A stretch of 64,000 bases of DNA from Psilocybe cubensis (GCA_017499595.2 CM039000.1:434001-498000); one strand, 5' to 3'. Positions 14,639 to 64,000 are shown, counted from the first letter of the stretch. The notes: generated by a model from the letters alone, not told the origin. Translations and numbers: made by a program.

Positions 14639-14902
14639 TTTTTGTCTCAACCAACAAACTTCCGATTCTGTGCTTTGTGTTTGTAGTAGTCTCATATATC
14701 TTCCTAATGGCAAGTTACTGCGGTCGACTCCATGGTAACCTGTCATTCATTTCTCTCCTTTTGAGCAATATTTGAAACATAGCGTTCAACGTGTGTTATT
14801 GTTATTGTTGTTGTTGTTGTGTTGTGTGTATATCTTCTGTTTTTAAATTGACATGTCACCGTGATGGTCATGTAAAGACAGGGCCATTTCATACCTGTAT
14901 GT

Positions 14903-15204
14903 CATAAGACAGTTTATTTATAACGTACATTACCTAAGATTTAATAATAAGGATATTACGTGAGACATGGTGGATTTACTCCCGCTACCTAATTAGGAGA
15001 TTAGCGTGATGTACGTGTGATTTATCCTGGCAAATCATAGCGTACATGACGTGCCATTTAGCACTAAATGGAGCCGCCGGGTGGCATGCGGGATCCGCGT
15101 GTCGGGCTGCACGGGAAAAACACGGGCCGCAAATGAACCGGACGGGTCCATCTACATCCCGTGTATTGCAAGCAGACGGATCCGTTTTGACCCGTGTTGT
15201 GCTG
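14903..15204 (+). repeat. Left TIR of KDZ-1 (302 bp)
   Basis: Reverse complement of 30194-30495; only two mismatches seen, both CpG/TpG transitions. Confidence 0.95.
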
Positions 15205-15297
15205 TCAGACGGACCCATTTGACCCGTGTCTTCCCAGAGAGGGAGGGTTATTTATGGGGTATTGCAAGTCAATGAGCACAAGGGCTCCAAAAATAAT

Positions 15298-16476
15298 TTA
15301 TTCATCTCTACCGGTATACAAATGCTTTTCCAAACTCGATTCAATCCCTGCCAGCCCAGCGTCAATTTCCTCCAGCACATTATAAGTCAGAATCTCTGAC
15401 TGCAGCTGATGCAGCCGGAGGTTCTTGAACGTTGTAACCTTTCCGTCATAACTACTGTCGCCGACGGAACTGTCAATTATTTGGTCGTATGTTGCCCGTA
15501 GCTGCTGCTCGGTATAATTCTAAAATAGTTGTCAGTATCTAGTGCTTGGTAATATCTGAGTACATACATATAGAAAAGGAGGGTTAAAATACGCCGTCTG
15601 ATCTGTCACATTCTCGAACTCAATGTCAGACTGGGTGGGAGGCGAACCGGGGTAGCCGCCCATGGGATCAAACCTGCCGTAGGTTCGAAAATAAGGGTTT
15701 TGAAGGAGCAGGTGGCATGCTTCAGGGGGTGGAGAATAGCGACCTTGCTTCCTCTCAGAGAAAATAGCTAGACGAGAGTCCATAATGATTTTGTCGACGA
15801 CAGACGTGTATGAAACATGTGCTGCCATCAACGGCGGAGCCGCATCATCCCGGATGACAGGCATAGGTGGAGGATCCAGGGTATCTGGAATAACAGGCAT
15901 AGGGGGAGGATCCAGGGTAGGTGGAATGACAGGCATAGGGGGAGGAGCTAGGTTATTTGGAATGATTGGCATTGGCGGCGGAGCCAAGTCGTTCCGGATG
16001 ACAGGCATTGGCGGCGGAGCCGTGTCGTTCCGGATGACAGGCATTGGCGGCGGAGCCGTGTCGTTCCGGATGACTGGCATTGGCGGCGGAGCCAGGTTAG
16101 CTGGAATGACTGGCATAGGGGGTAGAGCCAGGCTAGCTGGAATTACTGGCATTGGCGGCGGAGCCAGGTCTTTCCGGATGACTGGCATAGGGGGCGGAGC
16201 CAGGTTAGCTGGAATAACAGGCATAGGGGGTGGAGCCAGGTTAGCTGGAATTACTGGCATTGGCGGCGGAGCCAGGTCTTTCCGGATGACTGGCATAGGG
16301 GGCGGAGCCAGGTTAGATGAAATGACTGGCATAGGGGGAGGAGCCAGGTTAGCTGGAATAACAGGCATAGGGGGTGGAGCCAGGTTATCTGGAATGACTG
16401 GCATTGGCGGCGGAGCCAGGTCATCCGTCCTTGCTGTGCGTTTGCTTTCCTTAGAGTTGCTAATATTTGAAGACAT
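15298..16476 (-). CDS. KDZ-1 cargo: proline-rich repeat protein of unknown function
   Basis: ORF 15532-16476 with (LAPPPMPVIxxN/D) repeats; GT-AG intron ~15520-15568 joins a last exon NYTEQQLRATY...GRDE* ending at 15298. True start may lie further upstream. Confidence 0.6.
15825..16425. repeat. 36-bp coding minisatellite, ~16.5 copies
   Basis: Unit like ggcattggcggcggagccaggttagctggaatgact; encodes a 12-aa repeat on the minus strand. Confidence 0.95.
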
Positions 16477-16959
16477 TGCTGATGCTCAGAAATCAATTTA
16501 AATTTACTTGAATTAATGCAATTAGTCTTACATTTTATAGGTTTTACGGGAGGAGGTTCCTTCAGTTTTTCGAGAAGCCTGGTAAGATTGTTGAGACTGG
16601 TGTAGTCAATGGGGGAATTTTTGCTAGAGGTGGGAATAAAGTTGTAGGAGGACATACAGTCCAGAAAGTGCAACTGGGTGGGCTTGTTTATATATCTCAC
16701 GGAATACAATACTATCCGAGGATTCTCCATGACACGGAAATAGATTCACCCGTGTATCGAACTTAGCAACTTTTGCACAAACTGGATCTGGTGAAGAAAT
16801 CACATGACTCAGATTGTACATGTTTGTGTATGGTTTTGTTTTGCGGGACCGCTTTTTTTTAGACTTTTTTTAGACTAACTCCAACCATGATCACCACCCC
16901 ACGTTCTACCGTGCCTCACCCATTAACGCGTCTTCCCCCCCAAAAAAAACGCTTTCCCA

Positions 16960-19537
16960 ATGGCCTCTTCATCTTCCACCACCGCCACCTTCGCCCAACG
17001 CCTTGCTGACTGGGAAAAAACCTTTACAGAGTGCTACCGCAATGGCGAAAGCGCGTTCAACGCTCAGTTGGAGCAGCTCTACAGGGACTTGGTGAGTAAT
17101 CGATATCCCTTGAGCATAAGACTTACTGAACAAAAAAAATTCATCCAAATAGGTTCCACTGTGTCAAGAACACGTCAGGGACGCGGCCAACTTCCGCCTC
17201 GTGGATTATGTCGCAAGCCCTGTCGTGTATTCATACAAGACCAGCCAGGGCAAGGACGGCAAGCAGGTAGCAAGGTTCGAGATTGACTGGGCAAATTTGC
17301 ATCATCAAGTTGCAAATTTCAAGGCATACCAGCAAGGCCAGGAGGCACAGAGGAAGAGGAGGGAGGAGGAAGAGCAAGAGAAGAGGAGGGAGAAGGAGGA
17401 GCAAGAGGAGGAGGAGAGGCAGAGGGTGGAGGAGAGGAGGAAGAGGGAGGTGAGGAGGAAGAGAGAGGAGAAGAAGAAGAGGGAGGAGGAAGAGGAGAGG
17501 CAGAGGGAGGAGGAGGAGGAGAGGCAGAGGGAGGAGGAGAGGAGGAAGAGGGAGGAAGAGAAGCAGAAGGTGGAGGAGAGGAGGAAGGAGGAGAGGAGGA
17601 AGAGGGAGCAGGAGAGGAAGACCAGGGAGCAGGAGAGGCAGAAGGCGGAGGAGAGGAGGAAGAGGGAGCAGGAGCAGGAGCAGGAGACAGACGAGGAGAG
17701 GAACAAGGAGGAGACGGAGAAGAGACGGGCCGAGAAGGGCAAGGGCAAGGCAGTCGAACCCCCGGTGGAAGACGGACCCGTGACAGACGCCCACAAAGAC
17801 AAGGGCAAACGGAAAGCAGCGGACCCCGTGGAGTCCATTCAGTTGGCTCCAGCGGACTACAGGGGCCCACGGACAAGGAAGGGGGAAATCATTCCCCACA
17901 TCACCGCCTCCAACATGCCTGGTCACCCAGCGTACAGGGAGAAGCTGGAAAGATTGGCGAAGTCCAAGCAGGGGAAGTTCAGGAGCAAAGCAATCATAAG
18001 AAGCCACACGGACGAAGACGCGGACGCCGACGTCGACGAGGACGACGAAGGCGATGACCAAGAGGCCCCGCCTACCACCCCCACCCGGAAGATGCTCACC
18101 CGGTCTGCAAAGAAGGACGCCAACCAGGACAATATCCCCCCCATCAGGAAGGCGCGGTCGAGATCCGAGAAAGCGCGCCAGGTGCCGGAGGGGATGGTGG
18201 ATATGGTGGAAAGGTGCACGGGATGCACCAAATTCAAGGTGCCGTGCCATGTCAAGGGAGAGACAGGCACTGAGCCTCTCGTCCCCGTAAAGCACCAATC
18301 TTGCGAGTCTTGCAAGTCTCGCAAGATTCACTGCAGTTTCTACCCGGGACGTTTCTACCCGGGACGCAACACTGTCGCCGGGCAATTCAACCTCTCGACG
18401 CCGCTGGGAAGTTACGGGGAGGTGTTGAAGTTGGAGGAGGGAGAGGATGTTCCGGCGAAGGGGAAGGCCGGGGAAGGGTCGTTCCCTGAGGATGTGGGAG
18501 AGCTGCTTGTGCAGCTGTTTGAGCGACAAGGCCGACTGATGGAACGGATGGATGGCCTTTCCGCGTCCATGACGGCGATAAACGCACGGATTGCAACGTT
18601 TGCCGAGACAAACTTGGCGGTGGAGAAGAGGATGAAGACCGTCGAGGACAGCTTCCAAGAGCTGAAGGCCGAGTGGACCACGGCAAAAGAACAAGTGGCA
18701 GGAAACACTTCGCTTTCCGTCACGATGTTCAACAACATCAAGCAGGCGATCCAGGACGTTCAGTACGTGGTCGGGGTTTTGCTGGAGCAGGATGAACAAA
18801 GGAATCCCGCCCCCAAACAGGCAGCAGGACCCTCCAAGACGGAGGTTGAACAAGAATCGGGTCCGTCGCGGACCCGTGAACCCACCTCTGCGCCACAATC
18901 CCCCAGCCCACCACCACCGCCAGCACCCCTCCCTTCCCCACCTCCACCTCCAGCAGCACCCATTCTCCCTTCCCCTCCTCCACCACCGCCAGCACCTGTC
19001 CTCCCTTCCCCACCCCCACCTCCACCCGCACCCGTCCTCCCTGCCGTGTCTGCGCCACCAACAGCGCTATTCTTGCCCGGTTCGACTCCGGAAGCGCCTT
19101 CGCCCCCCCCAGCTGGCCGACCCTCGCTCCCACCGGTACCACCCGTCCTTTCCCTGTCTCCACCACCCCCTCTCCCAGCTCCACGTCCTCGAAGTTCGAC
19201 GTCAAAGGCCGCACCGTTGTCAAAGGGTGCACCATTGTCAAAGGCCGCGCCATCGTCATCGTCAAAGGCCGGCCCATCCTCAAAGGCTAAGCCATTGTCA
19301 AAGGCTAAGCCATCCTCCAAGGCTGGGCCATCCGGGAATGGACACTCATCGGAGTTGTCTGATCCCTCGGACAGCGACGAGGTTGAAATTGTGGAGGAGG
19401 ATGTTGAGATCGTGGCGTCCACGCTGCCCGCGTCGAACATAGCCACAAAGACAAGGGCTGGACGGAAGCGAAAGGCGGAAACGACTCTGGCTGAAGCATC
19501 GCGCTCGCCCAAAAAACCCAAGGCCCAAAAAAAGTAG
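16960..19537 (+). CDS. KDZ-1 cargo: coiled-coil protein with Zn2Cys6-like cluster and Pro-rich tail
   Basis: Exon 16960-17091, intron 17092-17152, long exon in the frame of ORF 17201-19537; E/R/K-rich helix; CTGCTKFKVPC-x18-CESCKSRKIHC six-Cys motif; second coiled coil; basic NLS-like C-terminus. Confidence 0.75.
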
Positions 19538-19802
19538 TGTATTTCAAATCTTTGTAACTTTTTTTGGTCTCCTTTTTTGCCTTGTCTCATAGATTGCATT
19601 GTACAATTTTTAATATTTGGACTGTATATAGTTTTTACTCTCATGTGCTCATCTGTTTTATATCTCTCCCAAAAAGTAGCACTTGATGATTTTTAATGAA
19701 CCCGCTTTCTGTTTTGATTTTGTGTGAAAACATGTTTGAGAAACATCAAGATAAGAATGAAAAGCATCACATTCAATAGGTATTATGAATCTACTTCAGC
19801 AG

Positions 19803-22113
19803 CTAGGCTTTCAAAGTTTTTTTTCTTTGTCTTTTACCTGCTACAACAAGCAGACTTGCTTCCTGAAGTGCTAAGGCATCCGAAGTCACATTCCTGCGGG
19901 CCCGTGTTTCATCCGTATCTGGACTTGTTACTGTCTCCACAAAGGCATCACAAGTCACGTCCCTGCCGGCCCGTGTATTATCCGTGTCTTGGGTTGTTCT
20001 TGTCTGAACTCCACTTTCTTCCACTGTGTCAAGTGGATCTGAGTAGGGCTTTGTTTTTTTCCTAGGTTGAATCCTTCTAGTTGGTTTTGGCTTAACTGGG
20101 GCCGGTACAGAACTCTCTTCATCGGGTCCGTCCATTTCCGCCGTTCCGACATATGGCTTTGTTCTTTTTCTTGGCATAATCTTTCTAGCTGGCTTGGGAG
20201 GCGCCTCCTCAACCTCTGGAGTTGGGCTGGATGATGGATTGACAATTGTTGGGCTGGATCTACTTGGTAGAGAGGGTGGCTCGCTAGATCTTGAAGGTGC
20301 GTCGGTAGGAGTCTCATCCGTCTCTGGCGTGACTTCAAATCTGGCAGTAGTGCGTGGCATCGCGGATGCCGGACTGCCCCGTCCATTATCAAACTCTGAC
20401 AGATTGGATGATTCAGAGTCGCTTGAAGATTGGGTTTGAAGTCGTATAGCTTTTTGCCTCAGGCGACGTTTGGTTATTGCTGCAGGAGGTGGAGGTATCG
20501 GGTGGGCTTCTAGGCCGTCAAACAAGTTGGACGGATAGAGAGGTTCCATAATATCATAGCCATTTCCAAAAACCTTTGAAAATTTAAAGGGGATGTCTCC
20601 TTGGGCTTGACGGTCCCTCCATAGCTTGAGAATTGCAGAGGTTGACTCCAGGCGGAGCCGGCTCGGATCCGTCACGGGGATTGAACTTGGCCAATACTCT
20701 GGATCAATCATTTCTGCAGAACGCCTTTCAAGAGCATCCCAAGGAACACTTGAACCAGGCCTGTCCTTGGCTAAAGCTGTATACATAGTTAGCAAGTTTG
20801 TTGAGGACATAGACAAATTACACACCATAAACCTTGTTCATGTAAATTCTAATAATTGACTTTTGTGCATAAGCGACTTCTCTCCCAGTTGAGCCATAGA
20901 TAGGACTAGGTACTATTGGAAATCCATTGCTGCTAAACTTGAGGGATTTTTCATGAAACGATGCATCTGGCAGTGCTGGATTGGCCACACCCTTCTCTAT
21001 TTCTGAAATGTGGACGAGGTATTGAACAAATGCTCTGTGAAAAGCGGCCAACTCGGATGGAAAGAGTTGCCCAAAGGAAGGAATTCTGACATCGTCGAGT
21101 GCTAGATCGCTTGTCTGGGTCCTTCAATGCCCATCAGTCAACATTAATACGGGCCAAATTATTCCGCCGCGAATGCTTACGGCGGAAACTTTATCCGCCG
21201 TAGGGTGTTTACGGCGGATAAAGTTTCCGCCGTAAGCATTCACGGCGGAACTTGTTCATGCCGTGTTTAACACTTACATTGAGTATTCGATTTTACCCTC
21301 AATATCATAATGCCCCTCAAAGGTAATGGACCTCATACCCATTCTCTGCCACTTAAGTTTCTCCATTTGTCGAAGTATTTTTCTGCCTTGCCTGGCAGCA
21401 GTCCTGCAGATGTCAGATTGACGGCGGAAACAAGTTCCACCGACTCACTTTGCCTTCATTGATTTTGAAACACCTTTCTTATTCCATTCCTCGAGGATCT
21501 CCATGAACCTGTCCCGCTCCTCCTGAGTCAATCTGGCCTCAACCTGCTTACGTCCTTGTTGATAAAACTTCATCCAATCTTTACTTCCACGAGCAGCATT
21601 CCCTGATAGAAGCGCAACCTCGGAGTCAATCTCTGCCGACTTCTCCTCACGGAATACCATCTGAAAGGTTATACGGGAGTTCAATCCTTCCAATTTTACA
21701 CCAATTCGATTTGATGCATGGTTTCTAAACCAATTAAATATTCGCTATTGTGATGGTTTATGTGTGTAACAAAATTTTCAAAGAAACAACGAGCTCACAT
21801 GCTTCTTCACCTTCCATTCTTTGTGTAGTTGCTTATCTTCCTTCCTAGCACGTCTAGAGTATCTGTGATCCCATGTAGCTTGCAGCTCAGGTATGACAGT
21901 GTTCTGTATGTAGTCTGCTTTGGATGACTTTGATGTATCTTTGTAGGGCTGTACATGCTTTTTCAACACGCGCATTTCCTTTGTTGTCCAAATATTTGAT
22001 TCTTCCGGCGGAAAGTCACCCTCCGCCGTCTGTCCGTTTCTGGGTCCGTTGTGGGTTGTGGCATTTGCGGTAGAAGGAAGCGGATCCGCGTCGGGGGATG
22101 CATTGGTGGGCAT
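19803..22113 (-). CDS. KDZ-1 cargo: multi-exon helical protein with possible HMG-box-like segment
   Basis: Exons WTTKEMRVLKKH..., WMKFYQQGRKQVEARLTQEERDRFMEILEEWNKKG, WQRMGMRSITF, GFPIVP, IDPEYWP...LWRDRQ; clearly homologous to 39683-42077. HMG assignment is inference from known KDZ-linked HMG genes. Confidence 0.65.
21162..21250. repeat. Intronic near-perfect hairpin (41-bp arms, 7-nt loop)
   Basis: ttccgccgcgaatgcttacggcggaaactttatccgccgta-gggtgtt-tacggcggataaagtttccgccgtaagcattcacggcggaa; one mismatch; inside intron 21122-21277 (-). Confidence 0.95.
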
Positions 22114-22992
22114 AATTGCAGTGATGTAACAAGTAGCTTATCGATGAGTATCTGTGTGATCTGGTCAAATCTCACGTCATACGGAGATAAAATAAGCTTC
22201 CGATCATACTAAATAAATGATGTGATGTCATATTTTTCCCAATCAGGTAATCCCGCTTCATCGTCGGCCACGATGATCAAAGCATGCTGGTCGCTGTCAC
22301 ATACATTGACCTCATGATTTTGCAATAGTTCCCTCTGCATTCAATCAATAAACATGGAATTTTGTAAACATTTAGCGCTTTATATAAAGATAATTTTACA
22401 AGGTTTTAAATTCTTGTCAGATGGCTGTAAAGATACAGAAACACAAAATGCAAATTCACGTCTTCTCACCCAAAACTTGTGAAACCCAAAACGGCAGTCA
22501 TCTCAGAGACCATGAGAGGTATTCAAATGCATAATTTTTTTCAAAAAATATAATGATCCCAGTGAGCTCATTTTGACACATTTTCTAGTATATTGAGAAT
22601 ATCTCCTTAAATACGAGGATTCACATTCTACAAAAAATGTCATTCGGTAGCTATTAAAAATATCTTTCATATGATATACGCCGGAGGAATGAGGGGCCAG
22701 CCAGTGAAAAGATATTTCAAAAACACTCCAAAGTGTGGTTCTGAAAGGGTCGTTCTGCATCATATTGTACATTTATGATGGGATCACGTCCATTTTGTGC
22801 ATCTCTGGATTAAGTTTTGTTCATAACATTTCACTCACTCATCCAAATATGCTGCAAGATAAGTCATATGAAAGCTATTTTTCTCCTCTTTAAAACGGCA
22901 TAATTGAGGGAAATTTATCTACAGAAATAAACATGTTATACTACATTTAGATCTGCGCTCACAGGCTATCAGACTCTTTGTTTCCAACATCC

Positions 22993-26876: not shown

Positions 26877-26920
26877 CCAGTTCTTTGAACATTCTTGTTG
26901 TATCTCATCTTGTTGAATTC

Positions 26921-51177: not shown

Positions 51178-51189
51178 ACGAGGGGGTAC

Positions 51190-51365
51190 TGTGATGATTC
51201 GTTCAATTACTAACTACTTATTTAGCATAGATACTCGTGACTGACTAGTAGATTAGATCATGGACACTCACGGGCACTCTAGATAGGTGTTGGAATCATT
51301 GTATTGGATTCGGGACTGATTATTTGGGCTGACATATTTGTATTCTGATTCAAGTAACTACGTAT
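51190..51365 (+). repeat. Gypsy 3' LTR, first 176 bp (interrupted by KDZ-3)
   Basis: Identical to 31990-32165, then switches abruptly to a KDZ terminus. Confidence 0.92.
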
Positions 51366-51696
51366 CAGTGTGAAATGCTACATTGTATCGTAACATAGGA
51401 TACAATGCCCACTACAATGTACCATATGATGGGGGTTTAATGAATTCATTGAAACCCTGAATCTAGTACTTTCAAAAAGGTAACTACATTGTGGTGTATC
51501 TTCTCGATTCATTGAATGTCTAACATTATACAAATATGTAGTATCTAATCATACCTTTGTTTGTTCACTAGTAAAATTGTTATGGGTAAGGATTTGAATG
51601 TTGCATTAAATAGGACTGGTATCGGAAACCTAATTTTTGCTAGTATTCCGACATCACTGTACTCGGATTGCATCCTGCGCTGGCATCAATAGAGGT

Positions 51697-52585: not shown

Positions 52586-52920
52586 CTATCACATTCAACT
52601 TGTATTTAGTTCATTGTACTTCTAAATTATGTGATCTGTTCATTCTTATTTCACTTGATTTCATAGCATACATAGAAGACAAATGATATAATTTGATCAT
52701 ACAGACACAGTATGCTACTACTCAAACTTGAACATGTTAACATCTAAAAATTTATCAAAGTATGCAGGAGTGAATACCAAACCACTCTGTTCCAGTTCCG
52801 ACACAGCTAGCAACGGGGTAGTTTCAACATGTACATCGTTATGAATTCTAAGAATTTGTTGAGGATATAACAAAGTTACATACCACTCTCCGACTGGAAC
52901 TCGCTGCCACTACCCTCATC

Positions 52921-53208
52921 TAATGGAAAGTAAATCTCAGTACGATAGAAACGAACTGATATATTTAGTAGATACCTAATGGAAAGTAAATCTACGTTAA
53001 GAGTAAGTAAGATTGAATAGAACACAAGTAAGTTAGCTGGCACACACCTCAGTACGATAGAAACGAACTGAGGTGGTGCCACTCCTTCGAGAGAAATATA
53101 AACGAAAACTACGATGAATGTAACACCAACAAGTATGAATGTAACACGAATTATACATAGCCCAGACCGCCGTCACGAGGACGCGCCGGTCAGTTTGTCA
53201 ATCCAACA
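52921..53208 (-). repeat. Copia 3' LTR (288 bp)
   Basis: No differences seen versus 57888-58175. Confidence 0.95.
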
Positions 53209-53215
53209 CTCCCCC

Positions 53216-56200
53216 TCAAACTGCGGCGCGTAAACCCATCGCGTTCGCAAAGTGCTTCGCTTTCGCGCTCGGAAGAGCCTTCGTGAGAGTGTCGGCAGTT
53301 TGGTCATCGGTAGGGCAGTAAATCAACTTGATAGAGCCGGAGTCGATAATGTATCGAATAAAGTGGTAACGAATATCGATGTGCTTTGTGCGTGCGTGAT
53401 ATTGACCTCCGTGAGCGAGAGCGATGGCCGATTGATTGTCGCCGTAGAGTGTGGTGGGGTGTACTATCTTGATATCGAGTGCGCTAAAAATATCGTTAAC
53501 GAGGCTGCGTAACCACATGGCTTCCTTTGAGGCGTGGGTAGCGGCCACGTATTCGGCCTCGGCTGTCGACAGGGTGACCAACTCCTGCTTTTTCGACGAC
53601 CACGACACAGCTCCTCCATCCACCACGAACACGTACCCCGAAATCGCCCTCCTGTGGTCTTGCGACGCCCCATCTGCGTCTACGAAACCCACCATGTCCC
53701 TCTTCTCACCGCCATACGTCAACGCCAAGTCTCGGGTGCCCTTGAGGTACCGAAAAATCTTCTTCACCGCCTCCCAGTGAACCCACGCCGGGTTGTCAAC
53801 GAATTGCGCCACGGTATTTGTCGCAAACGTGATGTCGGGTCGCGTTCCCATTGACGCGTACATGAGCGAGCCCACTGCTTCACGATATGGTACGTTTTTC
53901 ATCCGTGCAATGTCTGCAAGAGCGGTCGGGCATTGTGACCTGGCAAGTGGCTGACACGGATCCATAGGGATAGCACTTGGTTTCAGGTCGTCGAAATTGA
54001 AGCGCGTCAAGATGGTGTCGATATACGCATCCTGGGAGATGGAGACGGTTTTATTGGCGGTGTCGCGAGTGATTTTGAAGCCGAGGAGCCATCTGCATTC
54101 ACCAAGGTCCGTAATCTTGTATTTCTTGTTGATTTCGACCTTAAACTGCGCAATTAGTGGCGTTGAACTCCCCGTTACCAGGCAATCGTCGACGTGTACC
54201 CCCACGATGACAATTTCGCCATCCACCACCTTCACAAACACACCTGGATCCGCCTCCAACACCCTAAACCCCAACTCCCCCATCGCCTTTTTCAACGCCT
54301 CATACCAATTCCTCGCACCCTGCTTCAACCCGTAGAGTGCCTTGTGAAGGCGATACACGTAGCGACGTGAGTCCGTTGCAAATCCGCGTGGCTGCTCGAG
54401 GTAAATGACTTCATCTTCATCCAGGTTCGAGTTCAAGAACGCGCTATCGAAGTCGATGCTTTTGAGCGGCCATCCATTGCGGTTAGCAAGTGCAATTAGG
54501 TATCGGAAGGTGGGCAGGCGTGCGACAGGTGCGAAGGTTTCCGTGTAGTCCACGCCATGGATCTGAGTGAATCCGCGTGCGACGAGACGAGCCTTGTACT
54601 TGTCAATCTCGCCTGCGGCATTCTTCTTGATGCGTAGGACCCATTTGCTGCCAACGACGTTAGCATTTGGTGGGCGTTCAACCATCTTCCATGTCCCGTT
54701 CGCCTCGAGTGATGCAAGCTCGGCTTTGATCGCGGCCTCCCATTTCGGCCAGTCGGATCTCCTTCTCGCTTCGTCGTATGTCGGGTTCAGCCCCTCAGCT
54801 GCATCCATTGCAGTTGCCATCGCAAAATCCATCGCCTCAACAATGTCCCATGCATCCGCCAACAGCCCTTCATCACCTGCACCCTCAACACTGGCCTCGC
54901 CTTCCTCGCCCTTCTCGGAAACCTCTGGGACAACCTGGAGACCGCGCGGGAACTGGCTTGCTGCAGGTAAGTTGCTAACTTTTGCAACTCCCTGCCGAAT
55001 GTCTCTGACGTACGCGCTCTCCTTTCGCAGCCGTGTACTTCGACGTAGCTCAGGTTCTGCTGTTGTAGGAGTGTTGGTGTCGGGTTTGGGAATGTTTGGG
55101 GACACGTAGCGCTTGGAATCATCCTCACGCTCGTCGTCTGACTCCCCCTCAAGCGGTGCGTGTTCCAGTACTACCTCATCTGGCATAAATCTGACACTTC
55201 GCTCAACTATCACAGATCTCTTCTCTGTGTAGTACACCCGGTGGCCGTGGCTTTCTTCATCAAACCCGACCCACTTTCCTTGCTTTGCTCGACCGTCCAG
55301 CTTCGAAGCGCTAGTATCATGCACCCACATGTCACAGCCCCATGGTGGAATGTTCGAAATGTCCGGCTTTTCACCCGTCAACACCTCGTATGGTGTTGCT
55401 TCCCCAAGCGCCTTTGTTGAGGTGCGGTTCTTCAGATAGACCGCATGATGCATTGCCTCACCCCACAAAAACTTTGGTAGGCCACTGTCGTGTCGCATTG
55501 CACGCACCTTGTCGAGGAGTGTGCGGTTGAGGCGTTCCGCAACGCCGTTGTATTCAGGGGTGTCATGTATGGTGAGTCTTCGAGTGGTGCCGGCCGCCTT
55601 GAGATGGGCTGAGAATTCATTACTTAGATATTCTCCCCCTCGGTCACTGTGGAGTTTCTTAATGGGGGCGTCAAACTGGGTCTTCAGCCAGGCTTCAAAC
55701 TCGCAGTAGTGCTGGAAGACCTCGTCCTTGGTGTGCATCAGGTAAATCTTTGTGTACCGAGTGTAGTCGTCTGTGAAGCTGACGAAGTAAGACTTATGGT
55801 TGATAGTCTCCACAGGTGCATCACCCCACACATCCGAATGGATCTCCTGGCCAAGTTCCGTGGCCTGCTCCTCCACCCGCTCTCTTGCTATTGGCTTACG
55901 ATGGGCCTTCCCCCACTCGCACGATGGGCAAAACGACGGCTTGCTGTCCTCATCAAGCTCGACTCCAGTTACCAGGCCCTTCTCAACGAGCTTCCGCGCT
56001 GCATCATGGCTGATGTGCCCCATCCGGCGGTGCAATTCATCGATGGTCAACACCTCGACAACCCGCCCAGCATATCCTGCTGCCTCCGGACGTGCCGTGA
56101 ACACACGGTAAAGTCCATTCTGCACCTCGATCTTCCCCAGCATCTCACGCGATCTGTTGTAGATCCGACAGAGTGCTCCTGAGAACACAATGGTGCCGCC

Positions 56201-57781
56201 CGCCTGTGCAATTCGGCTGATGGAGACCAGGGTAACCCCCATCTTTGGGGCATAAAGGACATCACGGAGCAACTGCTTTGTTGCAGGCCCATCGCCGTTA
56301 GGTATGTCAACATACATATCTCCCTTGCCAGTCGCAAAGAACTGACGTTTATCGGCAGCTGTGATAGGCTTTGGGTCGGTCTCAACGAAGTTAACGAAGC
56401 GATGTCGGTGTCCGGACATGTGGCGCGTAGCACCCGAGTCGTACAGATCCATGTCGACAAGGGTCTGCTTTTGAGTGAGGGTGGCAAATGTGAATGTGCT
56501 GTGGGCTTCATCTGTAGCAGTAAGGGACAGGACTGCTCGAGAGGTAGGTGCGTAAATTTCCTCCCATTCGTCATCGGAGTCATCATCGGAGTCTGACACA
56601 GATTGCAGACCCGGAAATTCCTCATCACTGTCCTCATCGCTGGAGTTGCTAACTGACTGGAGGGCTGGCATGCCTTCAGAGTCAGCATCGGAGATGGGAT
56701 CGTACTCGGAGCAGCTGGAGATGAGCTCGAGGATATCGGCGTCAGAAAGGGAGAATTCGGATGCGGAAGAACAGGTGAGTTCCTCCGACAAAACATTGAA
56801 TTCATCATCTGATGTGGTCATGGCCATCCAACCCTCCTCGTCCCCATCATCCTTCGCACTAGCCGCTGTCTCCTTCCCCTTCCCCTTGTTGCCTTCGCCT
56901 CCACTGCTCTCCTTGCCCTTCCCCTTGGACTTCGAGCTACTCGGGCCTTGCCCTGCCCTTCCGCCACCCTCTGCCCAGCACTCGGACTTGAAGTGCCCAC
57001 GCTTCTTGCAGTTGTGGCACTCGACATTCTTCTTCCACCCGCCCTTCCTCCCACGTGAACTTCCCGCATCTCCATGAAAGGCCGAGTTTTCTTCTCGCCT
57101 GCCGGTACCCTTCTGGCCCAGCGCACGACGGTCATACTCTTCGGTCACCGTGTGCATCAATTCCTCAGCGGATAAAGTTGTGCCAATGACGCTTGACGTG
57201 GCGTTTACGGCGGATATGTAGGGGTCGTAGGAAGGTGGGAGAGATCCCATGATGATTGCATAGAAGTCGTCATCAGATGGCGGCTGTCCCATGGCCGCCA
57301 AATCTTCGCGCATCAAGCGCAGCTTGTTGAAGTGTGCTCGCACATCTCCACGGTCCGGGCAGCGTTCCTGCTGTAGCCGGCGTCGCAAATCCACGGAGAC
57401 CATCCGTGATTTGTTTTCGAAGTCTCTTGCGAGAGCATCCCAGATATCGAAGGCGGTTCCTTTGCCTTGGATTTTCATAAAGTGTGAGTCCGAAATCGTT
57501 GCCGCAATCTGTTGCTTAACGATCGCCTCTCCTTGGTTCCAGGCCTTCAGCTCCTTTCGCCATTCCGCATCAAGAACTTCCTGCTCGGTGGTGAGCGGCT
57601 GATTCGGGACACGAGTGATGGGGTCCGGCGGAGCTACTGCGGTTCCGTCGACGTGCTCGAGTTTGCCACGCGCGTCAATGGACCATAGAAAGCGTTGCTT
57701 GTAGATCACCCAGTTCTTGCCCGCCTCGTCGAGCTTGGGGATCTTCATGAAGTCGTCGCTAAGTTTGGAAATGGAAGACAT
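53216..57781 (-). CDS. Copia Gag-Pol polyprotein (gag, PR, IN, RT, RNase H)
   Basis: CHNCKKRGHFKSEC, YDSGATRH, LHRRMGH..CPSC, SDVWG/SDRGGEY/NGVAERLN, YKARLVARG, ALYGLKQ, VHVDD, FVDAD, TKHIDIRYH; uninterrupted. Confidence 0.97.
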   Translation of the reverse strand: MSSISKLSDDFMKIPKLDEAGKNWVIYKQRFLWSIDARGKLEHVDGTAVAPPDPITRVPNQPLTTEQEVLDAEWRKELKAWNQGEAIVKQQIAATISDSHFMKIQGKGTAFDIWDALARDFENKSRMVSVDLRRRLQQERCPDRGDVRAHFNKLRLMREDLAAMGQPPSDDDFYAIIMGSLPPSYDPYISAVNATSSVIGTTLSAEELMHTVTEEYDRRALGQKGTGRREENSAFHGDAGSSRGRKGGWKKNVECHNCKKRGHFKSECWAEGGGRAGQGPSSSKSKGKGKESSGGEGNKGKGKETAASAKDDGDEEGWMAMTTSDDEFNVLSEELTCSSASEFSLSDADILELISSCSEYDPISDADSEGMPALQSVSNSSDEDSDEEFPGLQSVSDSDDDSDDEWEEIYAPTSRAVLSLTATDEAHSTFTFATLTQKQTLVDMDLYDSGATRHMSGHRHRFVNFVETDPKPITAADKRQFFATGKGDMYVDIPNGDGPATKQLLRDVLYAPKMGVTLVSISRIAQAGGTIVFSGALCRIYNRSREMLGKIEVQNGLYRVFTARPEAAGYAGRVVEVLTIDELHRRMGHISHDAARKLVEKGLVTGVELDEDSKPSFCPSCEWGKAHRKPIARERVEEQATELGQEIHSDVWGDAPVETINHKSYFVSFTDDYTRYTKIYLMHTKDEVFQHYCEFEAWLKTQFDAPIKKLHSDRGGEYLSNEFSAHLKAAGTTRRLTIHDTPEYNGVAERLNRTLLDKVRAMRHDSGLPKFLWGEAMHHAVYLKNRTSTKALGEATPYEVLTGEKPDISNIPPWGCDMWVHDTSASKLDGRAKQGKWVGFDEESHGHRVYYTEKRSVIVERSVRFMPDEVVLEHAPLEGESDDEREDDSKRYVSPNIPKPDTNTPTTAEPELRRSTRLRKESAYVRDIRQGVAKVSNLPAASQFPRGLQVVPEVSEKGEEGEASVEGAGDEGLLADAWDIVEAMDFAMATAMDAAEGLNPTYDEARRRSDWPKWEAAIKAELASLEANGTWKMVERPPNANVVGSKWVLRIKKNAAGEIDKYKARLVARGFTQIHGVDYTETFAPVARLPTFRYLIALANRNGWPLKSIDFDSAFLNSNLDEDEVIYLEQPRGFATDSRRYVYRLHKALYGLKQGARNWYEALKKAMGELGFRVLEADPGVFVKVVDGEIVIVGVHVDDCLVTGSSTPLIAQFKVEINKKYKITDLGECRWLLGFKITRDTANKTVSISQDAYIDTILTRFNFDDLKPSAIPMDPCQPLARSQCPTALADIARMKNVPYREAVGSLMYASMGTRPDITFATNTVAQFVDNPAWVHWEAVKKIFRYLKGTRDLALTYGGEKRDMVGFVDADGASQDHRRAISGYVFVVDGGAVSWSSKKQELVTLSTAEAEYVAATHASKEAMWLRSLVNDIFSALDIKIVHPTTLYGDNQSAIALAHGGQYHARTKHIDIRYHFIRYIIDSGSIKLIYCPTDDQTADTLTKALPSAKAKHFANAMGLRAAV

Positions 57782-57887
57782 GGTTGACAGTAGGAAGTGG
57801 AGAGTTTTCTCAGAGAGTAAATAGGTCACTGGTCGGTTGAGTAGAATGAATGCTGGATTGATTCAGTGTCTCTCGGGGCCCATAACC

Positions 57888-58175
57888 TAATGGAAAGTAA
57901 ATCTCAGTACGATAGAAACGAACTGATATATTTAGTAGATACCTAATGGAAAGTAAATCTACGTTAAGAGTAAGTAAGATTGAATAGAACACAAGTAAGT
58001 TAGCTGGCACACACCTCAGTACGATAGAAACGAACTGAGGTGGTGCCACTCCTTCGAGAGAAATATAAACGAAAACTACGATGAATGTAACACCAACAAG
58101 TATGAATGTAACACGAATTATACATAGCCCAGACCGCCGTCACGAGGACGCGCCGGTCAGTTTGTCAATCCAACA
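57888..58175 (-). repeat. Copia 5' LTR (288 bp)
   Basis: Reads TGTTGG...CCATTA on the minus strand, followed directly by the PBS. Confidence 0.95.
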
Positions 58176-59746
58176 TCATCTTCTGCAATATCTGACTGCC
58201 TTCCTGTTTCTTCGTCCAAAGTTCCGCCCAAGTTGTCATCCAACCCCGCATTTGTGCTGCTGTCATCGTCGAAAAGGCCTAATGCTGCATCCAAGCTGTC
58301 ATCCGACTCGGAACCAAAAAGGTTGTCGTTTGCGGCTTGGTTTATAATATCGTTATCCGATTCGGAGTCACTGGAGTTGCCATTACTGGAGACTGGATCC
58401 GCCGCTTCTGTAAAATCTTCAACGCTGGAAAGCGGGACCTGATCTGCAACTTCTGCAAAATCTCCGACACTGGAAGGCGGGCTCCCTTCGGTACCGTACT
58501 TGAAGTAGTCGGGTTGGGTGAATGTGGCGGAAGGCAATGTTTGGACGGCGGATATGGCTGCAGAATCAAAGGTGCCGACCTGAGACAAAGAGTCTTCAGT
58601 GGAATATTTAACCTTTTGCCCTTCCTTGAGATTTTTTGCGTATCCTGTATGTTCTTTCGGATTGCTGACCTCGGAAATGCTGAGGACATCTTTGATGGTA
58701 AGAGATTTCCCCCAAGTCCACTTGTCGGATGGGGGCGTCTGCTTTGAATTCATCAAATCGGCGGGTATTTCGGGTTTGCGGGTTTTGATGTTGTCGCGTC
58801 CATACGTTGCCGCACCCTCAATAGCAGCATCGTCAAGTTCCTGGCTAAGCTCGTAGAGCTTGAAAAATCCCATTGCACGTCGCGAAATACAAGCAACTTG
58901 GTTGGAGGCTACATCGGCAAGACATGTAGAGAAATTCTTGACACCTCTGAACTGAACAAGCAGATCATCAGAAAGATTACGGAATTTAGCACAACAACCA
59001 CAGTGTATGTCACCGGGTTTAGAGTCGGGAACAATCTGAGTCGGATAAATAAAGTTTGTCTGACCAGGGGCATCGGGAGGGGGATCAAGAGTAGACAGCT
59101 GCCCATGACGTATACCACTCGGCTCAGCGGGAGGCAGCGGTTTGGTGGAATCCTTTGCTTTGGGGAAACTTTTAGCATACTGTTCACCATGAAATTTCAC
59201 GATTTTCCCAATGGTAAGATGATTTAACATTCTTTCGGGACTTGGGGGGGTATTACGAGTCCACCAGTCATAAAGGTATTTTTTGACACCTTTCTCAAAA
59301 CCCTGGTCATTGTCATCCGCGGCCAAAGAGGGCAAAAGATCGGGGTGAAAGTCCATTGGAAACTCTTCGGGTAGACATGCAAAAAGAGATTCGGAAAGAA
59401 GGCGAAGGATGTATGGGATATCCAGCACCCAACCAACTGCATATGCTTGACCGACAACTGCCATAATGTAGTGCTATTGAGTACATGAGATTTATCAGTG
59501 ATAAGATGATGATCATTTCTGATAACACACCAATTCTTCCTGAAGGCAACGTTGCATCCATCCATGGTTGTCCAGACTGGCGTCGATGATATGAATTAAA
59601 GCCTCGCGAAGTCTAGAAGCACCACAATATATGATTCCTTGCGCCAAAACCTGCTCGGCCTTTTGGGACCCAACTTGGATGTCAAAGGGGTTGAACGGTC
59701 TGATCGTGATCAAGGGTTGGTCAAAAAATGACTCGGAGTCACTCAT
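58176..59746 (-). pseudogene. KDZ-3 WW/CxxC cargo gene, 3' end split by Copia (remainder at ~52876-52920)
   Basis: CGASRLRE..WMQRCLQEEL, GQAYAVG..LDIPYIL, WWTRNTPP, CGCC, RRAMGFFKLYE, KWTWG; removing the Copia gives ...IAEDEGSGSEFQSES. Confidence 0.75.
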
Positions 59747-59778
59747 GGTGGTTGCAGATTAAGGACAAAAATTTCAAA

Positions 59779-62700
59779 TTACAAAGGTTTGTAATGTTTA
59801 TTTACTGATCTAAAAGATCGATCTGATATCAAAGCCAAATGATGCCACATTTGCGCTTTGCGATGTGCATATGCTATTGCACCCGGCAAAATTGTCGGGT
59901 TATCCTTGATAGCCGACTTCCAGGTTGCACTCTTGTGTAAGAAATATGTCACGGTCCATTGCATCTCATACCTAACCAATGTACTCTCCTCCTTCCATCG
60001 TTGAAAGTGAGCTCTGGCTCTTAACCAATGTACTCTTTTAACTGAAAGGTTAATAGAAATTAGCGCTCAACAAAAATAGAATCAATATGAGAAATTAACT
60101 GACATTCAAGCACTGTTGCCGGATCAGCGTTATCGCCGAGAGAATTTGGATCGGCATTGTCGGGAGCGTCGGGATCCAGCACCCATCGGGGACCTAACCG
60201 TTGATTTACTGAGTACCATATCCATGACAAGCGGAAATTTGTCGATCCTGGTATGTTCGGGTTAAGAACAGCGGTACTTGATCGGACATCATCTTTGGTG
60301 AGGACCCGAAACTCCCGAAGAATATTGTTGTCGGCACCAAGTTGAACTAGGCAATCTCGACATCGTGAGTAGGCTTGTGCATGATGTGAAATGCGTTCCC
60401 TCAACTCCTTTGCTGCCGCTTGTCCTCGTGTACGCACACCTTTTCGTGGGCCCTTTCGTATGACATCGGAATACTGAAATGACCTCTCTGCAATAAGTTC
60501 TCGAATTTGATTCAGGTGTCCTCGAGCTTGTGAAATCCTAGCATGTATTTCAGATGGTGCATGAATGATGTCCACATTCCCATTAGAAGGTAGGAATATT
60601 GTTTGAAGGTCAATAGGCTCATACACTGCTGAACCCGATCCCGGCGCCAAAATGTCTTCCTCATCCTCCCAATCTATAAAGAGTTGTTCGGGTATTTCAT
60701 TCCCTTTGGAAGCTGTCGGAAGAACTCCCGCGTCATTTTGCAGAATGCTTAGTTGAGCCATTAATGCTTTTAAAGTTTCGCGTAGCTTTATTAATTTGTT
60801 ACGTTCTGCAAGCCGATCATGGTTAATAAGGCGTCGGGCTCTCATCCGAATGTCCAATCTGTGTGTATAACTATTAACACCATGATAAATAATCAAGACT
60901 GATTTAAACACATACTGTCTTTCTTCCACAACTACTGCAAATTGTATCCATGACTCAATCGGGTTTAGAGGTCGATGCGGAACTGCATCGGGAGTGACTG
61001 TGGAGGTTCCAGGCCTTTTTGCTGCATATATATCCATAACCTTTGGGTCCACCAACCTCTTGGACTCAGCTTCTTCAATTTGTTGTTTCCATAACTTTAC
61101 TGCATCGGGGTCAGCTCCTTGGGTTAAGTTTACAAATGCTACCCGATACTGCTCTTGTTTTTCTTCAGCCTCATCATGCCTACGACAGAGATATTTTGTG
61201 ATTCCAAGAGCCTTTTTGTGATTAGAGTCGGAAGCATGATCGTCTAGCAACTCTGCACGGTGCGCCAGAGTTGCTGTGCGGGCGGCGGGAGATATATGAT
61301 TCAAATCCGCCCATAGTGATTCCAAAATTTCTCCGCAGACGCAAGCGGCACCAGGAATGAAGGTTGGTGCATATCTAAAGAAACATTCATCTTTATGAGC
61401 ATGTACGTGAAACATGCCAATTGCCCGATCAACTTTGAGTCCTTTGGGGAGTAGATGCCCAATACGCTTGAGAAGATAAATGATATATTGACAGATTATG
61501 TCGTAGATAACCGCTAGGCCTTGGTCGGGATCAACACCTGTTGATTTTAATGCTGATAGAAGGGCAAAGTCGACATTCTTTTGTTGCTCTCCTTTAAAAA
61601 GATCGACAAGTGAATTGGGGGCGTAACATCCATGCCTTGCACAGGCAACCCCCACAATGCCTGTAACATCGCAGGATTTTGATGATAATAATGAATTTTG
61701 GATTGCCCGGAATGTGTTTTCACATGGTGCTCCCTGAAGAGGGTAGTTAGATATTCCACCTGTTATTTATCAAATACAAAGCTCTTACTGTCAATGCTTC
61801 AATGGCGGATTTCAAAAATTCACCATACTCCATTCGATCGGGTGTCATTCCACCACCTTCCGACAACCATATATCGCGGGATGGTTTTTTAGATCGGACA
61901 TGGTCTGCTTTGAAGTTTCCGTCCGCTACAAAAACACGCTTGTAGACCCAGCGATTGGGGTCATCTTTCCAGTTGGCACTCAAATTGACACCAGGCTGTG
62001 GACATGCTGGGCAGAAATTGGCTAGTTCTCCCCGCCCAACCGACAGTGCACTTTTGCCGTTATGGCCTCCGAATCCTGCCCATTTTAACTTTTTCATCCA
62101 TCTCCATAAGCGGGACATCCGTCGAAATTCATTATAAAGATTGACAACGGTATGCGGGGCAGTCGGATTGGTGACACGTCGCAATAGGGAGTAGAACTGG
62201 TAAGCAGAAGACTTGAGTTCTAAATTTGAGAGTCGAAAATAATCTAATAATTGTGCGGAAAATAGTGTGCGGATTTGCTGGAAACTTGTCGGTAGCAATC
62301 GGCATGCCATGAGATCTAAAGGAAGCTGCCCCGACCCATGGCAAACGCAAGATACCATAGCCAAATGATGAAGGCCATTAGTATGCACAACTCGCACATA
62401 GGAATTGTTTAACCCATCAGCAAAGGGGGCATTTCCAGTGAAGGTAGAGTTGGGATCCCGATTCCCGACCGTTGGTGGCGAAAGATATGCTGGCATGAAT
62501 CGGACATCGGAGTCGGCATCACCTACCTCTGCTTCATCATCACCATCTTCAAATCCCTCCAAATTTGATGGATCCTCCCGAAGCTGGTTGAGATACTCCT
62601 CAAACTGATCATCTGTAATGCCATCTGGATTTTGGGTATGTTCTGAGTCCTCCTTAGTATCATCCATAAAAATATCATTGTCATATCTTGAAGGATATGA

Positions 62701-63524
62701 AGGTGATTCAGATGTCGGGTGTGCGACGCGCAGTAGAGCCTGTTCTTCAAAGTCTTTCCGCTCTTCCAACTCCTCAAGAAGTTGCTTTTGAAATGTTAGA
62801 GATTCGCATAGAGGAGGAAATTCTGCAGAATGGTGAGATATTAATAGATAACATCCCACCTCCCATAGCTCTGCTGATCGGAAATAGGCACCATTCCAAC
62901 GCTCTATCCTATGCATTGGATTAACCTGATGCTCATGTCGTATGCACCGTCTGCATAATAGAGATGGAATAGAGCAATCTCGACACCTCCATACCGAGAT
63001 GCAATCGTTATGGCATTGTGTGCAGATGGATGGTGCATTAAGCGCCCTCGGCGCTTCTCGACTCAGCAATGCACCAAGTATATCATCCACTCGTTCCACA
63101 AATTGCAGAATGTAGTCTCTTTGAGTCTTTAACGTATAAGATAAGCCAGCAACTCCATTTAAAACTTTGAAATTACCTTTCGAGGTCTGGAGTCTACAGG
63201 TCTTCCATCGTCGCGGTGGTCATCAGTGTTGTGTATGTCATAATCACCTTCATAGCCTTCTGATGTATCCTGATTGTCTATATGCCATGGATCACCTGTA
63301 TTACGCCTCTGTGGAACTGCCAATGAGACTGGAACAAGGAAAGTCAGTGATTGTAATAATAGCTTGCATTTTTTGATACCTTTTACCAAGTCCGGAACCG
63401 TCCTTCCAGTTCTTGTTGTACGAGTACGATTTTCATATGTTACTGCGTCTGCTGCATCAGCATCATCCTCATATAATGTCCCCTTTTTGGATCTTCTTGA
63501 ACTTTTGGTTCTCTGTGACGGCAT
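59779..63524 (-). CDS. CxC2-KDZ transposase of KDZ-3, no lesion seen
   Basis: MPSQRTKSS start; CTQC..WRCRDC; VHTNGLHH..CVC; FCPACPQPG; ADGNFK; CARHGC; YDIICQY; FHVHAHKDEC; GEILESLW; LLDDH; RYEMQWT; about six exons. Confidence 0.88.
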
Positions 63525-63720
63525 AGAAAAGGAATAGAAAGAGCAGAACAAAGTACAAACGTGAAGACTCTTAGGTTCCTTATCATGAAATCGATTAGAT
63601 CTTATTCCTGAATGGAGGTTGTGAAATTTGTCATACAGGCCTGAAAAATATAAATAGGGAAACCTTCTAGCTAAGCTGAATTCTTTACACCCCCATAAAA
63701 AGGTATAAGCAGCCCAGAAC

Positions 63721-64000
63721 ATGTCGGAGATAGATGAGCAAGATGTTCTAGATGTTTTTCAGACCCACGATAGGCGCAAGAGGGTGTACAATAGTCTGGA
63801 GAGAAAGGAAATAGACCCTTTCAAAGAAGAATATTTTGCGGCAACATCTAATCTTGAACGCAAACAGGTTGTATGCAAGATTCTCCCTTAACTATTTAAT
63901 ATTTGGGTTACGACAGGAAGTAGACGTCTGTCTGCAACTCAGGAATTTGCACAAAAAGAGGCAAAGGTATGTTACTATTGGTTACTTACCTGACAATATT
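63721..64000 (+). pseudogene. First exon of the KDZ-3 helical/HMG-like gene with premature TAA at 63889
   Basis: MSEIDEQDVLDVFQTHDRRKRVY...TSNLERKQVVCKILP*LFNIW...KEAK|gtatgt, homologous to 41802-42077; absent from the ORF track. Confidence 0.75.

Follow-up and report, generated by a model that had tools for sequence, protein, structure and literature searches.

Kyakuja-type KDZ transposons have so far been known mainly as a transposase accompanied by a TET/JBP passenger gene. They are characterised by a 7-bp target-site duplication (TSD) and 5'-CA...TG-3' termini (Kojima 2025, PMC12730594, section 3.2.1). Here we analysed a 64,000-nt stretch of Psilocybe cubensis DNA (GCA_017499595.2 CM039000.1:434001-498000; hereafter the window, with positions counted from its first letter), which holds three such elements, KDZ-1, KDZ-2 and KDZ-3. 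Our analysis points to a fixed unit of four to five genes under selection, whose products are the transposase, a DNA-binding-like protein with a Zn cluster and members of three families that lack a Pfam assignment.

The window elements resemble Kyakuja-1_LB and Kyakuja-2_LB, TET-carrying families described by Kojima (2025, PMC12730594), in their KDZ transposase, 7-bp TSD and Agaricomycete host, and KDZ-2 also in its CA...TG-type termini. KDZ-1 also shares with those families a TET/JBP gene inside the element, which is of the AG type there and is assigned at family level here. The Laccaria Kyakuja families are described as lacking terminal inverted repeats (TIRs), whereas KDZ-1 has 302-nt TIRs and a second family has TIRs of at least 145 nt. 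In the sections of that paper devoted to Kyakuja, the only accessory gene described is TET and no conserved multi-gene plan is given. The elements KDZ1, KDZ2, KDZ3 and KDZx1 of Cryptococcus (Huang et al. 2024, PMC11588098) are likewise large (6.4-10.9 kb) and mobile, with TIRs, TSDs and extra open reading frames (ORFs) without recognised domains. Compared by description, they differ in belonging to the Dileera or Zisupton clades and in having 8-bp TSDs, CxC1 or CxC4 and two extra ORFs; the parts of the article that describe them mention neither a conserved plan of several genes nor tests of selection or an analysis of motifs.

A further parallel is VANDAL21 of Arabidopsis, a DNA transposon whose accessory protein VANC was shown experimentally to bind family motifs and remove methylation (Hosaka et al. 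2017, PMC5735166). According to the sections on these motifs, they are short, family-specific, often in tandem and enriched in the family, and proteins and motifs differ among related families, as they do here. VANC is unrelated in sequence, belongs to a Mutator element and has motifs mainly in non-coding DNA, whereas the elements studied here are KDZ transposons with CpG motifs that also lie in exons and with a binding protein that is a candidate only. In CACTA/En-Spm (TnpA) and PIF/Harbinger (a Myb-like protein), a second element-encoded DNA-binding protein acts on repeated subterminal motifs. These two-ORF transposons have one accessory gene and other folds and superfamilies, in contrast to the three or four accessory genes described below. 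Starships are large multi-gene fungal elements with a tyrosine-recombinase "captain" and variable cargo; the present elements instead combine a DDE-type KDZ transposase with a fixed gene set, and Pfam scans of their ORFs found no captain, the enzyme being the KDZ transposase. A literature search found no description of this gene plan; an earlier one may exist.

Three Kyakuja-type elements move as whole units

The window is transposon-rich fungal sequence, in which Pfam searches placed CxC2 and KDZ transposase domains at three sites, in ORFs at 23292-25797(+), 43352-44903(+) and 60063-63219(-). KDZ (PF18758) scored 130.1, 123.6 and 132.4 bits in KDZ-1, KDZ-2 and KDZ-3, respectively (cutoff 26.6), and the N-terminal Zn-chelating cluster CxC2 (PF18803) scored 77.5, 27.7 and 57.4 bits (cutoff 27). 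The window thus holds three Kyakuja-type KDZ DNA transposons, which move as whole units of 13.6-15.6 kb and create a 7-bp TSD (Table 1). Their placement in Kyakuja is based on the CxC2/KDZ domains, TSD length and, for KDZ-2, the termini. The TSD length typical of Kyakuja was present in KDZ-1 (CCTGTAT) and in KDZ-2 (AGAAAAC, at 35081-35087 and 48727-48733), while the other end of KDZ-3 lies outside the window. The KDZ-2 termini, CACATAC...CCTACCTG, match the Kyakuja CA...TG. In KDZ-1 (GTCATAAG...CTTATGTG) the 3' TG is present, and GT stands at the 5' end in place of the CA expected from the TIR partner.

The KDZ-1 TIR arms (14903-15204 and 30194-30495) are 302 nt each and 99% complementary. We aligned contigs from four public runs to positions 14000-31500 to assess KDZ-1 mobility. 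An empty site was found in runs X1 and X5, where one contig each joins 14893 to 30498 with 7 letters fitting both sides; the joint omits 15,604 nt, which equals KDZ-1 plus one TSD copy. In run X8, a contig spans the left junction with 32 letters inside the element and zero differences, and at the right junction a contig reaches 30 letters inside, one short of the bridging rule. Word depth was ~120-390 inside KDZ-1 and 13-25 in the flanks (depth is not equal to copy number), and loose contig ends at 14903 and 30497/30498 run on into differing sequences. The raised depth and the loose ends at the borders fit a multi-copy family.

KDZ-2 interrupts a Gypsy element, and its excision in silico restores an in-frame Gypsy reverse transcriptase, KCEFKKTQVEYLGF. 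An initial annotation of this DNA had spoken of a bounded element; KDZ-1 is precisely delimited by TIRs, TSD and empty site, and KDZ-2 by TSD and the restored frame. The split Gypsy, with 100% identical long terminal repeats (LTRs), is itself very young, and the KDZ-2 insertion is more recent still. Despite this recent insertion, KDZ-2 already carries stops in its transposase (an in-frame TGA at 43294-43296, with a frameshift near 43546) and in gene E, which suggests that it was mobilised in trans. Around the premature TGA in the transposase, the sequence (43285-43305, GAGAAAACCCACATACA) is similar to the left junction of KDZ-2 itself, AGAAAAC followed by CACATAC, perhaps by chance. KDZ-3 is inverted and begins at about 51366, with an end that resembles the right end of KDZ-2 (inverted match 48630-48679/51413-51462, 84%); a subterminal array of 73/210-nt repeats follows at 51704-52582 (TRF).

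A conserved gene set with fixed order

In KDZ-1 and KDZ-2, the layout from left to right is B(+), C(-), T(+), E(+), where T is the transposase and C and T are divergent. KDZ-2 adds a divergent A(-)/B(+) pair, with ~240 nt between the start codons. The visible part of KDZ-3, with E(-), T(-) and the first C(+) exon, repeats the common layout in inverted form. The conserved gene set consists of two divergent pairs (A/B and C/T) plus E directly downstream of T.

Several statements of the initial annotation bear on this plan. Its common order and orientation for KDZ-1 and KDZ-2 was confirmed for B, C, T and E by ORFs, mapping and tblastx, as were the inverted order in the visible part of KDZ-3 and the plus-strand WW/CxxC gene after the transposase, which is our gene E. 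KDZ-1 and KDZ-2 had also been said to lack obvious DNA similarity, and this is true outside the transposase: tblastx similarity was limited to the transposase, whose cores are ~36-39% identical, with a single match of 54 nt (72%) at the DNA level. A small minus-strand ORF does lie left of B in both elements, but the two are not homologous. The proposed fixed plan of five to six genes became a unit of four to five, complete in four elements as A-B-C-T-E; A was not detected in KDZ-1, and TET is optional. A TET gene restricted to KDZ-1 and on its minus strand holds within the window, but its position and strand vary in other loci.

We then examined metagenome contigs, in which a pattern scan with the transposase core gave 74 loci (numbered with L) in 41 clusters at 90% nucleotide identity. 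Loci were informative for C when at least 4.5 kb was available upstream of the core (n = 18) and for E when at least 2.8 kb was available downstream (n = 15). Of the 18 loci, 16 had C upstream of T (14 with C on the opposite strand, 2 with C on the same strand) and 2 yielded no C; the counts by family were 12, 1 and 2. E was found downstream of T in 12 of 15 loci, on the same strand in 11 and the opposite strand in 1, with none in 3. When any match was counted, C lay upstream in 19/19 loci and E downstream in 20/20. The full A-B-C-T-E order was present in KDZ-2, L013, L016 and L022, and L004, L018, L023 and L035 showed parts of the plan as far as their contigs reach. The layout is thereby repeated in soil fungi that are unrelated. 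L013 and L018 form the second family with long TIRs (L013 15-159/L018 11866-12010, at least 145 nt, 96.6%; both contigs stop inside the repeat). A TIR search within L022 found none.

Between L022 and L023, B had a ratio of nonsynonymous to synonymous substitution rates (dN/dS) of 0.24 and 0.32, C of 0.11-0.31 and E of 0.35, compared with 0.08-0.22 in the transposase and 0.9-1.9 in off-frame ORFs. For gene A (L004 vs L016) it was 0.08 and 0.25. Pairwise identities of C and E followed those of T: Mantel tests gave a Spearman correlation of 0.54 between T and C, reached by 0 of 5,000 permutations, and of 0.26 between T and E, reached by 19 of 5,000. The accessory proteins evolve faster than the transposase. 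Because B, C and E are homologous across lineages and under purifying selection, and C and E co-diverge with T, we regard B, C and E as core parts of the element rather than captured host cargo. The initial annotation had likewise viewed the cargo as a core module and not random capture, which metagenome synteny and dN/dS support.

Table 1. Features of the three KDZ elements and the retrotransposons nested with them.
Feature	Position	Strand	Details
KDZ-1 left TSD, CCTGTAT	14894-14900		Identical 7 nt at 30498-30504
KDZ-1, complete TET-carrying Kyakuja-type element	14901-30497	+	15,597 bp; TIRs, TSD, polymorphic insertion
KDZ-1 small ORF	15532-16485	-	Proline-rich repeat (LAPPPMPVIxxx) x15; 36-nt x 15.9 tandem array
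KDZ-1 gene B	17153-19537	+	794-aa ORF, 5' exon undefined; six-Cys motif
KDZ-1 gene C	19803-22113	-	Multi-exon; P0001 mapping 22113-20003
KDZ-1 transposase (CxC2 + KDZ)	22993-26876	+	Several exons; own stop 26874-26876; Pfam, P0016 mapping, ORFs
KDZ-1 gene E	26921-28545	+	Three exons, 26921-27085, 27177-27482, 27523-28542; P0002 mapping
KDZ-1 TET/JBP dioxygenase	28776-29831	-	Two exons, one at 29565-29831; Pfam Tet_JBP domain at 28776-29561
Gypsy LTR retrotransposon	31990-51365	+	Interrupted by KDZ-2; 176-nt LTRs, 100% identical
KDZ-2, complete TET-less element	35088-48726	+	13,639 bp; CA...TG ends
KDZ-2 gene A	35854-36500	-	Two exons, 36246-36500 and 35854-36096; jackhmmer
KDZ-2 gene B	36702-39534	+	About four exons; ORFs 52 and 46 nt apart
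KDZ-2 gene C	39683-42119	-	First exon 41805-42119; exons 41397-41711, 41141-41380 collinear with KDZ-1 C
KDZ-2 transposase, decayed	42387-46056	+	Pfam; tblastx to KDZ-3
KDZ-2 gene E	46322-47653	+	In-frame TGA 47165-47167; same frame either side
KDZ-3, inverted	51366-64000	-	Continues past window end; its end in the window resembles KDZ-2 right end
Copia LTR retrotransposon inside KDZ-3	52913-58175	-	296-nt LTRs, 99%; Pfam RVT_2, gag, rve
KDZ-3 gene E	58157-59473	-	3' end 19 nt into Copia LTR
KDZ-3 transposase	59785-63758	-	Pfam CxC2 + KDZ
KDZ-3 gene C, first exon	63709-63888	+	Divergent from T; tblastx to KDZ-2

Homology of the accessory genes across lineages

Comparison of the predicted proteins showed homology of B, C and E between lineages with no more than ~36-40% identity in the transposase. 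The KDZ-2 and KDZ-3 transposases are closer to each other, with 67-80% amino acid identity in tblastx.

Across lineages, the genes at the B position all share one architecture, in which a Zn2Cys6-like Cys cluster precedes a coiled-coil-like region and a low-complexity tail. KDZ-1 B combines an E/R-rich region, a CX2CX6CX18CX2CX6C cluster, a coiled-coil-like region and a P-rich and basic tail, and KDZ-2 B combines a five-Cys CX2CX6CX14CX6C cluster, a coiled-coil-like exon (Pfam DUF7491 coiled-coil, E 0.0015) and an acidic/P-rich tail. Zn(2)-Cys(6) clusters follow the spacing CX2CX6CX5-12CX2CX6-8C; the L004 group has CX2CX6CX10CX2CX6C, while the middle loop of KDZ-1 B is longer, at 18 residues. 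The strict pattern CX2CX6CX8-20CX2CX6C occurred in 9 of 6,291 ORFs, and 8 of these 9 were at the B position. The sole six-Cys ORF elsewhere (L007 6997-7569) has the same strand as E, from which it is 2 kb downstream, and could be part of a neighbouring element. Zn_clus was the top Pfam match in 8 of 9 B segments, at 13.2-20.9 bits (KDZ-1 B, 19.1 bits). Since these scores are below the Pfam cutoff, we term B "Zn2Cys6-like" rather than a family member: the Zn-cluster coiled-coil gene of the initial annotation stands at its place and strand, and the KDZ-2 cluster is incomplete. B genes of different lineages were not joined by jackhmmer and are linked through profile comparison only, in which two B cluster profiles, one including KDZ-1 B, aligned with all six cysteines matched (hhalign 90%, E 1.5e-6).

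KDZ-1 C maps to a public P. cubensis model (P0001, JR316_0009877). In the multi-domain C proteins, the exon with the W[FI]xN helix is conserved, as are three more blocks (family alignments A2 and A5). Between KDZ-1 and KDZ-2, BLASTP gave 27% identity over 102 residues (E 1.1e-6), and more collinear exons were recovered via P0001; the first C exon of KDZ-3 was 47% identical over 66 aa to KDZ-2 41883-42080. P0001 itself looks faulty, with the conserved W[FI]xN segment spliced out. No Pfam family, Homeodomain included, matched C. Homeodomains are 60-residue three-helix domains with WFxNxR in helix 3, and the likeness of C to them was not significant: a PDB profile search gave NANOG at E 0.22, and ~25-30 residues separate putative helices 2 and 3. 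The HMG-like label given to C in the initial annotation was not sustained, as 14 C-domain sequences, P0001 and P0003 gave no HMG-box match at E<=1. An Atlas search returned Basidiomycota clusters only, without names, and PDB sequence searches gave nothing significant.

KDZ-1 E is 99% identical to P0002, recorded from P. cubensis, and contains a G..IP block, WW, CxxC, SWG and an acidic tail; across lineages, E shows the G..IP block, WW, CxxC, KWTWG and the acidic tail. E of KDZ-2 and KDZ-3 matched in BLASTP (E 3e-35), and KDZ-3 E is truncated at the acidic tail, as its frame enters the Copia LTR for 19 nt. A hidden Markov model (HMM) of KDZ-2/KDZ-3 E did not find KDZ-1 E, and the spliced KDZ-1 E scored 4.6 bits against it, reached by 7 of 2,000 shuffles. 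We then scanned with P0002 using HMMER and obtained 12 representatives (alignment A4). This KDZ-1-type alignment matched the KDZ-2/3-type alignment (A3) at hhalign 96% (E 4.5e-9) over 159 columns covering the G..IP block, WW motif and CxxC helix, and E of KDZ-1 is linked to the KDZ-2/3 lineage through this profile comparison only. E had no Pfam family, and the Atlas search gave no match.

KDZ-2 A matched A of L004, L013, L016 and L022 in jackhmmer (E 3e-17 and 5e-23), and no Pfam family was found for A. ORFs at 35169-35750 of KDZ-2 were rejected as a gene, being a (GGTGCG)n hexamer microsatellite; the actual small gene is A. The small ORF of KDZ-1 showed no homology to A and probably codes for a different, proline-rich protein, because its 36-nt repeats vary mostly at third codon positions (0.29, vs 0.106 at the first two) and the minus frame is preferred at two discriminating sites. 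The third base of Met never varies, and the Val codons are GTC/GTT/GTA.

Lineage-specific CGG motifs and a candidate self-marking mechanism

In every KDZ lineage, a different CpG-containing 6-8-mer is over-represented ~3- to 26-fold element-wide. We examined the window elements and L004, L013, L016, L018, L022, L023, L044, L063 and L067. ACGGCGGA occurred 19 times in the window against 1.2 expected, with 17 of 19 copies in KDZ-1. GTCGGA/TCCGAC occurred 86 times against 26 expected, with 44 copies in KDZ-2 and 23 in KDZ-3 (12 of them in the subterminal array). The L004 group uses TCCGGCA(T), and CCGGCAT was found 42 times in each of L018 (1.85 expected) and L004 (1.61 expected); other lineages have CCCGCC, CCGACGG and CGGCCGA. 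No comparable enrichment was seen in the host flank, Gypsy or Copia. Motif copies form subterminal arrays and inverted pairs and also occur in intergenic DNA, introns and exons; no fixed spacing of pairs was found. CGG or CCG, the half-site of Zn2Cys6 proteins, is present in every one of these motifs.

The ACGGCGGA units also build a near-perfect 41-nt palindrome and a 35-nt duplication (21162-21250 and 24822-24892) in introns of C and T. In runs X1 and X5, 63 nt of the palindrome are missing from contigs of other copies.

The motif composition raises the possibility that B binds the lineage motif of its own element, a tentative proposal that we put a little short of even odds. B, as a Gal4-like dimer, would recognise the CGG/CCG motif strewn over the element and its subterminal arrays, namely ACGGCGGA in KDZ-1, TCCGAC in KDZ-2 and KDZ-3 and TCCGGCA(T) in the L004 group, and this binding would mark "self" DNA. 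Together with C and E, and TET where present, B might keep the element unsilenced and transcribed from its two bidirectional promoters, and might help the transposase to locate its own ends. By analogy, Kyakuja elements could carry a sequence-specific system that marks them as self and counteracts silencing, much as VANC does in plants, although we consider this extension speculative and on balance improbable. Under it, a fast-evolving B on its CpG motif would shield these sites from methylation or direct TET/JBP there, either the element's own or that of sister copies, with C and E as further parts of the complex.

Weighing the alternatives

A conserved gene set, with self-marking through B and a lineage motif as its proposed mechanism, is the best overall explanation, to which we assign a probability of roughly 0.75. 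The accessory genes could instead be host genes, captured once or repeatedly and riding along without function for the element. Host-gene capture is known for large DNA transposons, A, C and E have no Pfam family, and KDZ-2 contains broken gene copies. Nevertheless, the order is the same in 12-14 families, the accessory genes co-diverge with the transposase, their dN/dS is 0.1-0.35, and in the fetched loci C and E matches occur at no other position relative to T, making such passive cargo very improbable. E could also represent 3' exons of the transposase gene, expressed as one long T-E protein or as alternative isoforms, in which case the plan would have one gene fewer. The E start codon of KDZ-1 (26921) lies 45 nt past the transposase stop, E is on the transposase strand in 19/20 loci and downstream in all, and many E ORFs start without Met directly at the conserved block. 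A T-E fusion appears in the public model P0016 (1,559 aa) and in P0004 (717 aa), a representative. P0016, however, matches only positions 161-217 of the Pfam profile and omits most of the KDZ core, two other public models are standalone 492-aa E proteins with their own 5' exon, and the transposase carries its own in-frame stop. Moreover, a Met stands at the conserved N-terminal block or up to 10 residues before it in 7/16 aligned E sequences, and L043 has an E-like gene on the strand opposite to T. We consider a shared T-E gene rather unlikely. For this one locus, public models differ in length (492 aa vs 1,559 aa), and P0016 (mapped 22993-28542) looks faulty, as a T-E fusion that skips most of the core.

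With regard to the mechanism, B and C might be classical transposition cofactors, comparable to the second ORFs of CACTA/En-Spm or PIF/Harbinger elements. They would then attach to subterminal repeats and bring in the transposase without taking part in silencing, and the element-wide motifs would be a by-product. Motif copies are indeed concentrated in subterminal arrays (KDZ-3 51647-52519, the L004 left end, the L018 right end and KDZ-1 15833-16414), B and C are both DNA-binding-like, and most lineages that keep B, C and E are TET-less. The motifs also spread across introns, intergenic DNA and coding exons, occupying 13/32 to 20/27 of the 500-nt bins, and end recognition needs no such spread; we judge a pure cofactor role to be rather unlikely.

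Several observations weigh against a conserved gene set with self-marking by B. All gene models are predictions from sequence and public models, A was sought in KDZ-1 and not detected, and the stop codons in T and E of KDZ-2 indicate that the genes are not kept in every copy. The metagenome sample is biased to lineages resembling KDZ-2/3, since KDZ-3 was the reference used to confirm the pattern search, and many of the 74 loci are near-duplicates, as their 41 clusters indicate. Among informative loci, no C was found in L038 and L069 and no E in L063, L066 and L067; C lies on the T strand in L048/L049 (one family), and the E-like gene of L043 is reversed. dS is saturated in many pairs, KDZ-2 vs KDZ-3 among them. 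As for B, none of the 9 segments reached the Zn_clus (PF00172) gathering cutoff of 21 bits, KDZ-2 B has 5/6 Cys and fits the B profile weakly (P 0.0032), and no similarity was detectable beyond the 56-column cluster. Motif density was 1.2-1.7x higher outside conserved ORFs and no more (L004, L013, L016, L018), and the motifs track lineage, so that T or C could be the binder instead of B.

With such a fixed unit of four to five genes, Kyakuja elements would be among the most gene-rich cut-and-paste transposon types of eukaryotes. The lineage CGG motifs provide a bench-testable hypothesis on element self-recognition and on how transposon TET enzymes, called "non-target-specific" in the discussion of these enzymes by Kojima (2025, PMC12730594), might be aimed. 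Genes A, B, C and E can also serve as markers to delimit elements in mushroom genomes and to correct fused or truncated gene models.

TET/JBP gene and other features

TET/JBP is an optional extra of variable place. Within the window it was found only in KDZ-1, where Tet_JBP scored 67.7 bits (cutoff 34.9, E 9.5e-19). Of the HxD...H triad of this 2OG-Fe(II) oxygenase domain, 28776-29561 shows HRD and, further on, a His. It lies downstream of T on the minus strand in KDZ-1 and L043, and upstream of T on the plus strand in L063, L065, L066, L067 and L071; in L063, L065 and L067, where C was also seen, it lies between C and T. The TET-upstream lineage has further conserved plus-strand ORFs between C and TET (L063 3880-6390, L067 3905-6345; dN/dS 0.10-0.23), one of which is Cys/His-rich with a PHD-like CYVC...CDRC...H...CFVCMAC.

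tRNA and Rfam searches gave no match, and a scan of viral contigs found no relative. In the interrupted Gypsy, Pfam placed gag, protease and reverse transcriptase at 32198-35094 and RNaseH, integrase and chromodomain at 48784-51136; comparison of 31985-31989 with 51366-51370 revealed no Gypsy TSD. The KDZ-3 end lies within a few bases of the Gypsy 3' LTR (51340-51400). In the host flank, ~3 kb left of KDZ-1, Pfam detected an Argonaute fragment (ArgoL1 + PAZ) at 11412-12113.

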